From the NCBI GenBank assembly GCA_019428855.1, contig JAHYJV010000002.1, positions 1,917 through 65,916 of the forward strand: a stretch of DNA of 64,000 bases, read 5' to 3'. A program made the translations under genes and the position numbers. Shown piece by piece: positions 3,612 through 7,610 of the stretch (position 1 is its first letter; each line of letters opens with the position of its first letter). Below the pieces are notes generated by a model, which was not told the DNA's origin, searched no databases, and worked only from the letters and a program-made list of their open reading frames with translations. The stretch comes from Patescibacteria group bacterium. Lineage in GTDB: Bacteria > Patescibacteriota > Minisyncoccia > JAHIHE01 > JAGLIN01.

Positions 3612-6600
3612 ATGGAAAAATATAATCACAAAAAAATTGAAAAAAAATGGCAAAATGTTTGGGATGAAAGTGAAATATATCAAGCCAAAGATTCATCAAA
3701 AAAACCGAAATATTATTGTCTGATTGAATTCCCTTATCCATCTGGCGCAGGACTTCATGTGGGACATCTTCGTTCTCATATCGCCATTGATATTGTCGCT
3801 CGCAAAAAAAGAATGGATGGGTTTAATGTGATGTATCCGATTGGATGGGATGCTTTTGGCTTACCAACCGAAAATTTTGCCATCAAAACAAAAACACATC
3901 CAAAAGTTGTAACAAAAAATAATATCAAAAACTATAATCGTCAAATCAAAAGCTATGGCCCAAGTTTTGATTGGTCAAGAGAAATCAATACTACTGACCC
4001 AGAATATTATAAATGGACCCAGTGGATTTTTTTGAAGTTATTTAATAGTTTTTATGATGAAAAGCTAGACAAAGCAAGATTAATTGAAGAACTGAAAGTG
4101 CCAAAGAATTTCAATGAATTTGAAAAAAAAAGATATATTGATAATCACAGACTTGCTTATGAAAAAGAGATGGCGATTAATTGGTGTCCCAGTTGTAAAA
4201 TTGGACTTGCCAACGAAGAAGTTGTCAATGGAAATTGCGAAAGATGTGGTGCCTTGGCCGAGAGAAAAGTGATGAGACAATGGATGCTTCGCATTACAAA
4301 ATATGCCGACCGCTTAATCAAGGATTTGAAGACAGTTGATTATTTGGAAAAAATTAAATCTCAACAAATTAATTGGATTGGAAAATCAGAAGGAGTAACT
4401 ATTAAGTTCAAAGTGAAAAGTGGAAAAATAAAAGATACGAATGACTGCATTGCCACATCGAAAAAAACTCCTCACGATAATAACGAGATTATTGAAGTTT
4501 TCACTACGCGTCCAGACACTTTATTCGGATGCACATATATAGTTCTTTCACCTGAACATCCTTTAATTGAAAAATATAAAAATCAAATAGAAAATTTTAA
4601 GGAGGTTGAAAAATATCAAGATAAAGCTAGCAATAAATCAGATTTGGAAAGAACGGATTTGGCCAAAGAAAAAACAGGAGTGGAACTGAAGGGAATCGAG
4701 GCTATCAATCCAGCAAACAATGAAGAAATTCCCATTTGGATTGCTGATTATGTTCTGGCTTCCTATGGTACTGGTGCGATTATGGCAGTTCCAGCACACG
4801 ATGAAAGAGATTTTGAGTTTGCAGAAAAGTTTGGTATTGCAATTAGGGATGTAGTCGCTCCATTTTTTCAGGCAGATATTGGAAATGAGAACGCCTTACG
4901 ACCTGACAAGAAAACAGTTCGCCGAAGACTAGTTACTGCTTTTGTAAAACATTGGAAAGAAGACAAATATCTTTGTCTTGATTGGAAGAAATTTAAGTGG
5001 CATACCCCAATTATTGGAGGGATTGAAGGGGGAGAAACTCCCGAAGAAGCAGGCTTGCGAGAGATCAGAGAAGAAACTGGTTTTCAAAATATGAAATTTG
5101 TGCATTATCTAGGAGGTGAGCTGCATAATTCTTTTTTTGCTAGACATAAAGATGAAAATCGATATTCAATTGAATATGGAGTATTATTTGAATTGATTGA
5201 TGATAAATGGGAAAAACCAAGTGAAGAAGAAATAAAAAATCATAAAGCTGTTTGGATTAATGCGAAGGAAATGGAAACTTTTTTGAATTTGGAAAGTAAA
5301 AAAATATTATGGCACCGATTGAATGGTAATTTTGAATGTTTTAAAGGAGACGGTGTTAATATAAACTCTGGTTTTTTGGACGGAATGGAAACTATTAAAG
5401 CGAAAAAAGAAATTTCCAATTGGCTCGTAAAAAATAAGCTTGGTCAAAAAGCAGTGAATTTCAAACTTCGCGATTGGATTTTTTCGCGCCAACACTATTG
5501 GGGTGAGCCAATCCCGATTATCAAATGCCGAGAGTGTGGCTTGAAAAAATTAAACATTAAAATGGAATTAAATTTTCGAGTAAATAAAGCTTGGAATCAA
5601 ATAATTGATAATAAAAAAACAATTGAAACTCGAGCACTAAATCCACAAGAAAAAGATAAATTCTTCGGCGATATCAAAGTTGGAGATTTAGTGCGGTTTA
5701 ATAACAAGAATACCCAGGAATTTGAAATTGTCAGAATCAACAAGGTCTATAATTTCAAAAACTTAAGCGAATTATTTGAAACGCAAAAAATAGTTAAAAA
5801 AATATTTACTGATGTAAAAATTAAAAATATATCAGAACTAAAAAAATGCTTTAGCTTTACGGAAGATTATCTAGACCGAATTGAAAAAAATGGTCTAGTT
5901 GGATGGGAATTTGAAAAGATAGACATTACTGAAAATATTTCTCTCTCAGAAAAAGAACTTCCACTGGAACTTCCTAATGTCAAAAATTACGAGCCAACGG
6001 AAACTGGAGAATCGCCACTAGCTAATATAAAAAAATGGGTTGAGATTAAATGTCCAATTTGTGGTGGCAATGCCAAAAGAGAAACAGACACCATGCCAAA
6101 TTGGGCTGGTTCAAGCTGGTATTTTTTGAGATACACAGATCCTGATAATTCAAAAGAATTTGCTTCACAAAAAAATTTACAGCAATGGATGCCAGTTGAT
6201 TTATATAACGGCGGAATGGAACATACCACTCTTCATCTTCTCTATTCTCGATTTTGGCATAAATTTTTATTTGACCTTGAATTTGTCCAGACTTCAGAGC
6301 CATATAAAATGCGTCGCTCGCACGGAATGGTTTTGGCAGAAGATGGTCAGAAGATGAGCAAATCGCGAGGAAACGTCGTCAATCCTGATGAAGTTATTGG
6401 CGAATATGGAGCAGACACTGTTAGATTATATGAAATGTTTATGGGTCCTTATAGCGATGCTATTCCCTGGAACACAACCAGTTTAATTGGTATGAATCGA
6501 TTTTTGCAAAGGATTTGGAATCTACAATCGAAAATTTCAAATACCAAATTACCAAAAAAAGAAACAATTCTGATTGCGACAAATAATCCCGGAAAATTAA

Positions 6601-7610
6601 AAGAACTAAAAAGACATTTTAAAAATTTCCAGATTATTTCTTTAAATGATATTGATAAATCTATTGAAGAACCAGAAGAAAATGAAAAAACATTTGCAGA
6701 TAATTCACTTCTCAAAGCAAGATATTATGCCCAGAAAACAGGCTATCTGACAGTTGCAGATGATAGTGGACTTTGCGTTAATGCACTTGATGGAAGACCA
6801 GGAGTCTTTTCAAGTCGCTATGCTGAGGGTAATGACAAGAAAGGTTGCGTAAAGCTTTTGAAAGAGTTGGAAGGTCTTTCCGACCGATCAGCACACTTTG
6901 AAGCTGTAGTGACGATATATGACTCCAAAAAGGATGAATATCATCAATTTGAGGGTCAGTGTGACGGTGAAATTTTAAGAAAATTCGAGGGAGATAGTGG
7001 GTTTGGATATGATCCAATTTTTATGCCAAATGGTTTTGCAAAATCCTTCGGGCAGTGTTCCATTGAGGAGAAATATTTATTTGATCACAGACAAAAAGCT
7101 ACAAAAAAACTAATCGCTTATCTTGAGAATAATTCGAATAATGATGAAAATAAAATCGAATCATTAATCCACAAAACCATCAAAAAAGTTTCAGAAGATA
7201 TTGATAACTTGAAGTTCAACACTGCCATTTCTCAACTAATGATTTTGGCTAATGAAATAGAAAAAGAAGATAAAATATCATCGGCCAACTTTAAAATATT
7301 TTTGAATTTGCTGTCCCCTTTTGTTCCGCACATCACGGAAGAAATCTGGAAAAATCTAGATGAGAGGCAAAGCATTCACTTGCAGACTTGGCCACAATTC
7401 AATCCACAATTTATCAAAGATACAGAAATAAATTTCGTCATTCAAATCAACGGAAAACTTCGCGATCAAATCATAGTCCCCACTGATATCTCAAAAGAAG
7501 AAGCAAAAAAACTCGCTCTGGAAAGCGAGAAAGTTCAAAAATGGGTTGCAGGAAAGGAAATTAGAAAAGTGTTTTTTGTGAAAGGGAGACTGGTTAATAT
7601 AGTTATCTAA
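3612..7610 (+). CDS. leuS: Leucyl-tRNA synthetase with three inserted domains (Nudix, ASCH-like, Ham1/ITPase)
   Basis: Class I HIGH region (HVGHLRSH), CP1 editing-domain motifs (TTRPDTLFG, GTGAIMAVPAHDERDFEFA), KMSKSRGN, LeuRS-specific CxxC...CxxC region and an anticodon-binding domain. 1332 aa versus the ~800-870 aa typical of bacterial LeuRS. Single uninterrupted ORF. Confidence 0.95.
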   Translation: MEKYNHKKIEKKWQNVWDESEIYQAKDSSKKPKYYCLIEFPYPSGAGLHVGHLRSHIAIDIVARKKRMDGFNVMYPIGWDAFGLPTENFAIKTKTHPKVVTKNNIKNYNRQIKSYGPSFDWSREINTTDPEYYKWTQWIFLKLFNSFYDEKLDKARLIEELKVPKNFNEFEKKRYIDNHRLAYEKEMAINWCPSCKIGLANEEVVNGNCERCGALAERKVMRQWMLRITKYADRLIKDLKTVDYLEKIKSQQINWIGKSEGVTIKFKVKSGKIKDTNDCIATSKKTPHDNNEIIEVFTTRPDTLFGCTYIVLSPEHPLIEKYKNQIENFKEVEKYQDKASNKSDLERTDLAKEKTGVELKGIEAINPANNEEIPIWIADYVLASYGTGAIMAVPAHDERDFEFAEKFGIAIRDVVAPFFQADIGNENALRPDKKTVRRRLVTAFVKHWKEDKYLCLDWKKFKWHTPIIGGIEGGETPEEAGLREIREETGFQNMKFVHYLGGELHNSFFARHKDENRYSIEYGVLFELIDDKWEKPSEEEIKNHKAVWINAKEMETFLNLESKKILWHRLNGNFECFKGDGVNINSGFLDGMETIKAKKEISNWLVKNKLGQKAVNFKLRDWIFSRQHYWGEPIPIIKCRECGLKKLNIKMELNFRVNKAWNQIIDNKKTIETRALNPQEKDKFFGDIKVGDLVRFNNKNTQEFEIVRINKVYNFKNLSELFETQKIVKKIFTDVKIKNISELKKCFSFTEDYLDRIEKNGLVGWEFEKIDITENISLSEKELPLELPNVKNYEPTETGESPLANIKKWVEIKCPICGGNAKRETDTMPNWAGSSWYFLRYTDPDNSKEFASQKNLQQWMPVDLYNGGMEHTTLHLLYSRFWHKFLFDLEFVQTSEPYKMRRSHGMVLAEDGQKMSKSRGNVVNPDEVIGEYGADTVRLYEMFMGPYSDAIPWNTTSLIGMNRFLQRIWNLQSKISNTKLPKKETILIATNNPGKLKELKRHFKNFQIISLNDIDKSIEEPEENEKTFADNSLLKARYYAQKTGYLTVADDSGLCVNALDGRPGVFSSRYAEGNDKKGCVKLLKELEGLSDRSAHFEAVVTIYDSKKDEYHQFEGQCDGEILRKFEGDSGFGYDPIFMPNGFAKSFGQCSIEEKYLFDHRQKATKKLIAYLENNSNNDENKIESLIHKTIKKVSEDIDNLKFNTAISQLMILANEIEKEDKISSANFKIFLNLLSPFVPHITEEIWKNLDERQSIHLQTWPQFNPQFIKDTEINFVIQINGKLRDQIIVPTDISKEEAKKLALESEKVQKWVAGKEIRKVFFVKGRLVNIVI
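4855..5345 (+). other. Nudix hydrolase domain inserted in LeuRS after CP1
   Basis: Canonical Nudix box GGIEGGETPEEAGLREIREETGF (GX5EX7REUXEEXGU), flanked by native LeuRS sequence (AHDERDFEFAEKFGI ... GVNINSGFLDG ... LRDWIFSRQHYWGEPIPI). Confidence 0.8.
5545..5950 (+). other. ASCH/PUA-like domain inserted in the LeuRS zinc/leucyl-specific region
   Basis: IIDNKKTIETRALNPQEKDKFFGDIKVGDLVRF...EFEIVRINKV fits the ASCH signature (G-K-T-E-R, beta-barrel). Inserted between CRECG and CPICGG of the native Zn-ribbon-like segment. Confidence 0.5.
6560..7130 (+). other. Ham1/RdgB-type non-canonical purine NTP pyrophosphatase (ITPase) domain inserted between the KMSKS region and the anticodon-binding domain
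   Basis: ILIATNNPGKLKELK ... LLKARYYAQKTGYLTVADDSGLCVNALDGRPGVFSSRY ... FGYDPIF ... HR form a full-length match to Ham1/RdgB-family motifs. Confidence 0.8.

Follow-up and report, generated by a model that had tools for sequence, protein, structure and literature searches.

Extra domains on aminoacyl-tRNA synthetases are well known, the eukaryotic enzymes bearing GST, WHEP and EMAPII appendages. In bacteria, NCBIfam curates under NF040702 an [quoted passage not shown], that is, an IleRS with a GNAT domain and so with an enzyme domain, and the TyrRS and LysRS of the candidate phyla radiation (CPR) have a fused terminal OB-fold B2 domain (PMC5370408). Here we describe a leucyl-tRNA synthetase (LeuRS) from a Patescibacteria group bacterium that, like these systems, has extra domains in the same polypeptide, but differs from them in that it holds three different complete enzyme domains (Nudix, ASCH-like and Ham1/RdgB), all of them internal and one nested three levels deep, and in that the repertoire is combinatorial and common to LeuRS, ValRS, AlaRS and a class IIb synthetase. 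The protein is encoded by leuS at 3612..7610 (+) of a 64,000-nt stretch of contig JAHYJV010000002.1, which we call the window and whose coordinates are used throughout.

Our search of the full-text literature returned no description of a LeuRS, or of any synthetase, with a nested Nudix, ASCH or Ham1 domain; what it did return near the topic was only a general domain-insertion survey, the terminal OB-fold fusions in CPR synthetases, and papers on ASCH function. A first-pass annotation of the window had called this an undescribed LeuRS architecture, which agrees with this search, while the protein turned out not to be singular but one combination in a family-wide pattern. Accessory domains on synthetases are already known; what is apparently undescribed is the presence of three complete nested enzymes from a combinatorial, superphylum-wide kit.

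Three enzyme domains nested within a LeuRS

The leuS open reading frame (ORF) runs for 1332 aa in a single frame without interruption. The whole protein matched TIGR00396, the bacterial leuS equivalog model, at 930 bits against a cutoff of 548, and a phmmer comparison with T. thermophilus (Tt) LeuRS 1h3n (E = 3e-183) resolved it into six collinear blocks and three large unmatched query stretches. Placed on 1h3n, insert 1 (aa 416-576, 4857..5339, +) falls at Tt 363-376, insert 2 (aa 644-777, 5541..5942, +) at Tt 445-446, and insert 3 (aa 973-1180, 6528..7151, +) at Tt 696-719; together they add about 480 residues to the LeuRS core, and a further small extra of 35 aa lies at aa 146-180. The first-pass annotation had already recognized the uninterrupted 1332-aa frame and the collinear canonical LeuRS blocks, and its nucleotide ranges for three additional modules (4855-5345, 5545-5950 and 6560-7130) agree within a few codons with the inserts as placed here.

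We then deleted all three inserts in silico and rescanned the resulting 855-aa core with Pfam. In the intact protein, the match to the editing domain model PF13603 (E = 1.5e-54) is broken at profile position 143 of 185; in the core it became contiguous (profile 2-184 of 185), its score rose from 184.8 to 194.3 bits, and PF00133 ran uninterrupted across the site of the ASCH-like insert. Since PF13603 becomes contiguous upon deletion, the Nudix domain sits inside the CP1 editing domain, between an N-terminal part at aa 254-415 (4371..4856, +; profile 2-143, also aligned to 1h3n) and a C-terminal part that leads back to the catalytic core at aa 577-638 (5340..5525, +; Tt 377-438). The earlier call of a Nudix domain with its box was correct, whereas its placement after CP1 was not. 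As CP1 is itself inserted in the Rossmann fold, the nesting is three levels deep. PF13603 was reported as insertion-exclusive, with zero instances as a host, when domain insertions were surveyed in 2026 (PMC13114784); with a Nudix domain nested in its PF13603 domain, the protein described here is a counter-example.

The contig is of metagenomic origin, and one related locus, L004, has an in-frame TAA at the junction of its corresponding insert (site 402, see below), both of which could point to an assembly chimera or a mis-called ORF that joined separate Nudix, ASCH and rdgB genes to leuS. However, a protein identical to ours is present in JGI data, and four further proteins from ENA and NCBI data (P0002-P0004 and P0006) have three matching inserts at 65-79% identity in the best BLASTP alignment; the triple architecture is common to at least five 90%-identity clusters (JGI, ENA, NCBI). 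Among loci that we took from GTDB representative genomes, a Paceibacterota metagenome-assembled genome (MAG; L001, 79% identity) and a Patescibacteria MAG (L002, 158-kb contig, 73% identity) each encode Nudix, ASCH-like and Ham1 domains in the same order within a single collinear ORF. The recurrence of the triple architecture in these independent MAGs shows that it is no assembly chimera. Dozens of related architectures in JGI, ENA, NCBI and Logan data, and the position of the inserts, in frame and precisely in loops of the host fold, argue in the same direction, and we regard this explanation as effectively refuted.

Combinatorial inserts across Patescibacteria LeuRS

The distribution of such inserts was examined in 120 LeuRS homologs aligned with MAFFT E-INS-i to an insert-free reference (P0049, 838 aa), counting insertions of at least 40 aa; this sample is enriched for insert carriers because candidates were picked by shared words. 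Hot sites were found at reference positions 272 (21 sequences), 402 (106), 475 (37) and 681 (36), with rare insertions at 242, 418/420 and 519. After clustering and labeling by Pfam, the inserts comprised Nudix (95 copies; sites 402, 272, 242 and 681), Ham1 (38 copies; sites 681 and 272), ASCH-like (32 copies; site 475 only) and Ser_hydrolase PF06821 (28 copies; sites 402, 418, 475 and 272), besides PD-(D/E)XK_3, nucleotidyltransferases, DUF559, canonical ASCH, HAD, and two unknown modules. The survey of related Patescibacteria leuS genes that had been suggested at first pass thus showed inserts recurring among the 120 homologs, with L001 and L002 sharing the triple architecture. The 79 related leuS loci from GTDB representative genomes carried Patescibacteria or unclassified "bacterium" MAG labels, besides the automatic bin labels "Saccharibacteria" and "Gammaproteobacteria".

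When ordered by host-only identity, close relatives (72-84% host identity) displayed a mosaic of architectures with none, one, two or three inserts. Full-length modules are absent from P0040, P0043 and P0044 (a stretch of ~43 aa at site 402 is all that is seen in P0040 and P0044), P0018 has Nudix only, P0034 ASCH-like only, and P0005 Nudix plus Ham1; the site that holds Nudix in our protein is occupied by an unknown module in P0007 and by Ser_hydrolase in P0020-P0033. The existence of close relatives without inserts indicates that a LeuRS can do its work without any of these modules.

Inteins in essential genes, too, are large insertions that keep the reading frame, occupy conserved sites and are patchy among relatives, and this raised the idea that the LeuRS inserts are selfish or mobile in-frame elements, like inteins or homing cassettes, kept because their excision is costly. 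Their patchy presence among close relatives, the swapping of module types at fixed hot sites, the nuclease-like PD-(D/E)XK_3 and DUF559 modules at site 272 in some LeuRS, and, in two relatives, an insert of 82 aa at site 402 that matches an antisense tRNA below threshold would all fit this idea, which we nevertheless judge improbable. In our protein, we found no composition shift across the inserts and no direct or inverted repeats flanking their boundaries, and Pfam scans of the protein and of the insert segments detected no intein or Hint families. The junctions (..VV/APFF.., ..FEC/FKGDG.., ..CG/LKKL.. and ..NIS/LSEK.., the slash marking the boundary) are without the intein splice signature, an N-terminal Cys/Ser and a C-terminal His-Asn followed by Cys/Ser/Thr. 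With neither flanking repeats, nor a compositional break, nor intein motifs, a mobile-element signature was rejected. Unlike inteins, then, the inserts of our protein show neither Hint or splicing motifs nor a homing endonuclease, and they are ordinary metabolic enzymes, presumably kept in the mature protein. Most modules of the family are likewise metabolic enzymes, and conserved catalytic motifs and low rates of nonsynonymous change (see below) also speak against selfish elements.

The divergence of modules at the same site tracked that of their hosts (Spearman 0.77 for Ham1, 0.90 for ASCH-like and 0.87 for Ser_hydrolase), whereas modules of the same type at different sites were only 21-33% identical. 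This co-divergence and low cross-site identity point to several old, independent insertions that descended vertically and were repeatedly lost or replaced, with no active hopping, and they too argue against selfish elements.

Several individual relatives are worth recording. The largest LeuRS seen, P0079 (1722 aa, on a 563-kb contig), has four nested inserts: 336 aa with Nudix at site 242, Ser_hydrolase at 272, Nudix at 402 and a HAD phosphatase at 519. Modules with no Pfam match occur in P0007 and P0026 (site 402) and in P0091 (site 420), and are of two types, of about 150 and about 120 aa. In L004, the in-frame TAA (6331-6333) lies exactly at the site-402 junction (..KYNL*FVQVVAP..) and divides leuS in two, an N-terminal ORF of 422 aa and one of 747 aa that starts with Nudix; a split gene, a pseudogene and a sequencing error are all conceivable explanations. 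An apparent interruption of leuS by ORFs in L004, L011, L042, L057, L061, L066 and L067 was rejected, the tblastn spans having taken in an upstream MetRS paralog and TatD; apart from the single TAA of L004, leuS is intact in these loci.

The site-402 insert of P0048 and P0055 (81-82 aa) translates as "..EGFEPSGLGMTTPDP..". For P0048 (L080 2721-2788, minus strand), it gave an antisense, full-length match to RF00005 that was sub-threshold (19.8 bits against a gathering threshold of 29, E = 0.2), and ARAGORN detected no tRNA in the site-402 insert of either protein. To judge from this match, a piece of tRNA-derived DNA may once have been taken up in frame at this hot site, with the insert as its remnant.

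Catalytic motifs and selection on the inserts

Nudix enzymes cleave nucleoside diphosphates linked to X. In insert 1, Pfam NUDIX matched aa 462-561 (E = 3e-11 in the full protein, 1.5e-12 with the segment alone), and the alpha/beta/alpha Nudix fold is complete. Its Nudix box, GGIEGGETPEEAGLREIREETGF (aa 469-491, nt 5016-5084), fully matches the consensus GX5EX7REUXEEXGU, with G469, E475, R483-E484-I485, E487-E488 and G490-F491. The structural neighbors of this insert after 2azw include the diadenosine polyphosphatases Rv2985, Ndx1 and DIPP, and its weak sequence matches include diadenosine tetraphosphate (Ap4A) hydrolases. Among site-402 homologs, 74 of 83 keep the box.

Ham1/RdgB enzymes hydrolyze (d)ITP/XTP. 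Insert 3 matched PF01725 (Ham1p_like) at aa 986-1169 (nt 6567-7118) over profile positions 1-185 of 186, with E = 1.3e-55 in the full protein and 5e-57 for the segment scanned alone, and exceeded the cutoff of the TIGR00042 equivalog (166 against 145 bits), so that the complete Ham1 domain first noticed between KMSKS and the anticodon-binding domain stood up in full. The signature blocks ATNNPGK (xxNxGK), ADDSGL, FGYDPIF and DHR (HR) all align to solved RdgBs. In its full length, its signature blocks and its score, the embedded domain is like RdgB, Ham1 and ITPA proteins (E. coli RdgB 1k7k, 4bnq); those are free-standing proteins of ~200 aa, whereas this predicted enzyme lies within a synthetase, with the catalytic domain on one side of it and the anticodon-binding domain on the other. 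All four blocks are kept in 26 of the 35 site-681 copies.

We compared codons with those of L001, L002, L005 and L015, and obtained ratios of nonsynonymous to synonymous substitution rates (dN/dS) of 0.07-0.09 for the host segments, 0.12-0.24 for Nudix and 0.09-0.19 for Ham1, and of 0.04 for the ASCH-like insert (against L001), values that are only qualitative because dS, at 0.7-2.1, is near saturation. All three inserts are under purifying selection, with Nudix the least constrained.

These data also bear on whether the inserts might be catalytically dead decorations that serve LeuRS as spacers, oligomerization surfaces or interaction surfaces. Dimerization of LeuRS through the embedded copy is conceivable, given that RdgB is usually a dimer, and at site 272 of relatives the signature motifs have been lost from nine of ten Nudix copies and from all three Ham1 copies, which are still in frame. 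Against this stand the intact motifs of all three inserts in our protein, the predominance of intact copies at sites 402 and 681, and a Ham1 score above an equivalog cutoff; decoration seems to us an unlikely role.

A divergent ASCH-like subfamily hosted by synthetases

Insert 2 has the ASCH beta-barrel fold and the octapeptide N667-K-K669-T-I-E672-T-R674 (NKKTIETR, nt 5610-5633), which fits GxKxxExR except that the first Gly is Asn. That position is Gly in many homologs; across 24 of 24 aligned homologs, the Lys and the Arg never vary, and the Glu is at most exchanged for Asp. Pfam ASCH (PF04266) gave no match to insert 2 even at E <= 10, and a stand-alone relative, P0140, reached only 17.5 bits against the PF04266 cutoff of 21.2, while a profile of the ASCH-like family reached PH0355 at E = 0.007. 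With no PF04266 match but with the fold and the motif in place, we assign insert 2 to a divergent ASCH subfamily. The initial by-eye identification of an ASCH module splitting the CxxC...CxxC region therefore holds for fold, motif and position (between C639/C642 and C814/C817), and fails as regards a match to the Pfam family.

The subfamily is rare, and it has a conserved block of its own, RALNPEE..FG. An exhaustive hidden Markov model (HMM) search of 1.84e9 representatives found only 186 relatives at E <= 1e-3, some of them free-standing proteins of 110-135 aa and the others embedded copies. Aminoacyl-tRNA synthetases or fragments thereof made up 25 of the 28 large hits examined, and belonged to four synthetase families of both classes.

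All 19 ASCH proteins assayed in a recent study take N4-acetylcytidine (ac4C) off tRNA; the Lys and Glu dyad of the GKER octapeptide is essential, with Glu-to-Asp tolerated, and isolated ASCH domains are often without tRNA binding, which archaeal ones gain through a helix-turn-helix (HTH) domain (bioRxiv 10.64898/2026.02.27.708502). A further report describes the ASCH protein EOLA1 as deacetylating free ac4C in nucleotide salvage (bioRxiv 10.64898/2026.08.01.741249). By its motif, the ASCH-like insert is probably an ac4C amidohydrolase, a better reading than that of a mere RNA-binding fold, as the module had first been described (bioRxiv 10.64898/2026.02.27.708502), and it could possibly act as a tethered ac4C deacetylase. 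This putative enzyme differs from the known ASCH ac4C erasers and amidohydrolases (PH0355, TthASCH, YqfB, EOLA1) in lying below the Pfam ASCH threshold, in being part of a rare subfamily marked by the RALNPEE..FG block, and in being housed in the zinc-knuckle loop of a synthetase. A separate 291-aa protein, P0133, fuses a free ASCH-like domain (aa 2-127) to a Nudix domain (aa 157-266), and its domain composition suggests that the two act in one pathway outside synthetases too.

Several ValRS carry the ASCH-like module (P0136, P0137, P0139, P0151, P0156, P0169 and P0192), in addition to a histidine phosphatase (cobC/PspA-like) in such cases as P0136, P0139, P0151, P0169 and P0192 and to Ser_hydrolase in P0137. 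P0155 is a class IIb (Asp/Lys/Asn-type) synthetase with an ASCH-like module; together with the ValRS, it shows that nesting spans both synthetase classes. P0160, a 1287-aa AlaRS (class II) from a Logan assembly, has four nested modules: ASCH-like (aa 243-348), guanylate kinase (aa 534-712), a partial Ham1 (aa 727-801) and Ser_hydrolase (aa 965-1112). The guanylate kinase is complete (TIGR03263, 198 bits against a cutoff of 160), and for a synthetase to house an essential nucleotide kinase is remarkable by itself.

The preference of the ASCH-like family for synthetases is the strongest argument for a functional coupling between inserts and host, in which ASCH would erase ac4C or N4-acyl groups on bound tRNA, Nudix would clear diadenosine polyphosphates that arise as by-products when amino acids are activated, and Ham1 would keep ITP/XTP off the ATP site, so that the inserts would tune or protect aminoacylation. 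A coupling of this kind, with removal of Ap4A, of adenylate by-products or of damaged NTPs at the synthetase, had been put forward at first pass. The activity of all 19 assayed ASCH proteins on tRNA and the frequent lack of tRNA binding in isolated ASCH domains (bioRxiv 10.64898/2026.02.27.708502) speak for such coupling, as do the diadenosine polyphosphatase neighbors and weak Ap4A hydrolase matches of the Nudix insert and the eight related genomes in which a stand-alone Nudix gene follows shortly after leuS. What speaks most strongly against it is that the inserts are dispensable and interchangeable: at 72-82% host identity there are relatives without one, two or all three of them, and one and the same site holds Nudix, a serine hydrolase, a nucleotidyltransferase or an unknown module in different relatives. 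Moreover, the guanylate kinase and phosphatases hosted by AlaRS and ValRS have no known tRNA role. On this evidence, coupling is a possibility that we hold only tentatively.

The downstream Nudix genes (169-229 aa; L032, L033, L034, L036, L063, L069, L070 and L071) lie 1-2 kb from leuS on the same strand; in L069-L071 such a gene is present though the LeuRS has no Nudix insert. They are only distant kin of the embedded domains, with HMM E-values of 1e-10 to 1e-14, where embedded copies reach about 1e-60. Stand-alone Ham1 genes beside a short leuS, which were considered as a source of insert 3, were not found, the neighboring ORFs being Nudix genes.

LeuRS core and genomic surroundings

The host shares its whole collinear core with bacterial LeuRS of the T. 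thermophilus 1h3n and E. coli 4aq7 type, including the HIGH/KMSKS Rossmann fold, zinc (ZN) modules, CP1, and the anticodon-binding and C-terminal domains. The HIGH motif of the class I catalytic core reads HVGH (aa 49-52, 3756..3767, +) and the KMSKS motif lies at aa 914-918 (6351..6365, +), both placed by motif and alignment. The editing domain has the threonine-rich TTRPDT (aa 298-303, 4503-4520, +) and the conserved Asp D400 (4809-4811, +), which aligns to Tt D347. Alignment to 1h3n also located the two CxxC zinc knuckles, C639/C642 (5526..5537, +; Tt C439/C442) and C814/C817 (6051..6062, +; Tt C484/C487), as well as, with Pfam, the anticodon-binding helical domain and C-terminal tRNA-binding domain at aa 1181-1332 (7152..7607, +; Tt 720-876). 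The protein is thus a bacterial LeuRS whose HIGH, KMSKS and editing motifs are all intact, and it is predicted to leucylate tRNA and to edit. It differs from those LeuRS in its three extra enzyme domains, in an editing domain that hosts Nudix, and in the absence of the leucine-specific domain found ahead of KMSKS in the T. thermophilus (Tt ~577-634, about 58 aa) and E. coli enzymes, which is replaced by a loop of ~9 residues, GMVLAEDGQ (window 6315-6350, aa 902-913). Judged by their length of 837-842 aa, insert-free relatives probably also lack the leucine-specific domain.

Directly upstream of leuS lies an ORF for a PaaX_M/Cas2-like protein (3017-3547, +; 176 aa, E = 2e-21). L067 has a homologous ORF in this position, preceded by TatD and MetRS genes, and L080 has an unidentified 95-aa ORF there, downstream of TatD; relatives have a small or homologous ORF upstream of leuS with TatD before it, and in several of them a MetRS gene. 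Hence metS-tatD-paaX-like-leuS looks like a conserved neighborhood. Elsewhere in the window, no other protein with nested domains was found, and HisRS (55487-56812, -; 441 aa), like the other large proteins, has an ordinary architecture. Immediately downstream of hisS is a HIT-family gene (55147-55476, -; PF01230/DcpS_C, E = 3e-23), which had been proposed as a related theme; the gene is real, but its relation to the inserts comes down to adjacency to an ordinary HisRS. Also in the window is a gene (47835-49577, -) for NrdD, the anaerobic type of ribonucleotide reductase, here with an ATP-cone domain, which is consistent with deoxynucleoside triphosphate (dNTP) supply from scavenged ribonucleotides.

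Discussion

We lean, with moderate confidence, towards the interpretation that the inserts are autonomous nucleotide salvage and sanitation enzymes that piggy-back on essential synthetase genes. To our knowledge, Patescibacteria-type organisms are without de novo nucleotide synthesis and scavenge nucleotides from their hosts. The guanylate kinase, phosphatase and HAD modules of sister synthetases have, together with the three inserts studied here, the handling of nucleotides or nucleosides as their common denominator, and this denominator combined with a scavenging lifestyle is what favors autonomous salvage. As deduced from motifs and folds, the host would be a functional LeuRS of the Patescibacteria (Paceibacterota) type in which three permissive surface loops would each accommodate a small, complete enzyme able to fold by itself and to catalyze its reaction. 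A variable loop of CP1 would hold a Nudix pyrophosphohydrolase, the zinc-knuckle loop an ASCH domain of the GKER type that is probably an ac4C amidohydrolase, and the loop ahead of the anticodon-binding domain a (d)ITP/XTP pyrophosphatase of the Ham1/RdgB family. These modules would act on their own in nucleotide-pool salvage and sanitation, while forming one polypeptide with the product of an essential, constitutively expressed gene. Fusion to such a gene would guarantee their expression and retention in a streamlined genome that lives on scavenged, including modified, nucleotides. The insertions would be old, passed on vertically with the host, and repeatedly lost or replaced, giving rise to the mosaic seen among relatives.

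Several observations weigh against autonomous salvage. Every embedded ASCH-like copy with an identifiable host is in a tRNA-binding enzyme (25 of 28 tested), and this restriction to tRNA-binding enzymes suggests some functional tRNA link as opposed to pure piggy-backing. The Ser_hydrolase, nucleotidyltransferase, PD-(D/E)XK and DUF559 modules found at the same sites fit poorly with nucleotide salvage. The loss of signature motifs at site 272 indicates that nested domains can persist without catalysis, and the closeness of dS to saturation tempers what dN/dS says about constraint. Within the 64-kb window, beyond which the genome is outside view, there are no stand-alone Nudix, Ham1, ASCH-like or Ser_hydrolase genes.

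A broader reading, which we put forward as speculative, is that Patescibacteria synthetases (LeuRS, ValRS, AlaRS and class IIb) might serve as scaffolds for a shared, interchangeable nucleotide salvage and sanitation kit made up of Nudix, Ham1, an ASCH ac4C deacylase, guanylate kinase, and histidine and HAD phosphatases. Translation would thereby be physically linked to the quality and supply of the nucleotide pool, and ASCH would be a synthetase-tethered eraser of tRNA N4-acylcytidine. If true, ultra-small cells would follow a new organizational principle, and a synthetase with a built-in eraser of RNA modifications would have its first natural example.

The architecture also has practical consequences. 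The NCBI pipeline misnames such LeuRS, MDF1497753.1 for example being called an "RdgB/HAM1 family non-canonical purine NTP pyrophosphatase"; this flags a class of annotation error and is a caveat for phylogenomics with leuS, valS and alaS in Patescibacteria. The hot sites show where class I synthetases tolerate an inserted domain, as tested in nature by evolution. Taken with the 2026 finding of ac4C erasure by ASCH proteins, the ASCH-like insert yields a concrete prediction, that of a deacylase for tRNA or nucleosides tethered to a synthetase. Few known proteins are as conserved as the synthetases, and yet they display recurrent, combinatorial nesting across a bacterial superphylum, which suggests a route by which genome-reduced, nucleotide-scavenging bacteria may secure clean-up and salvage activities.

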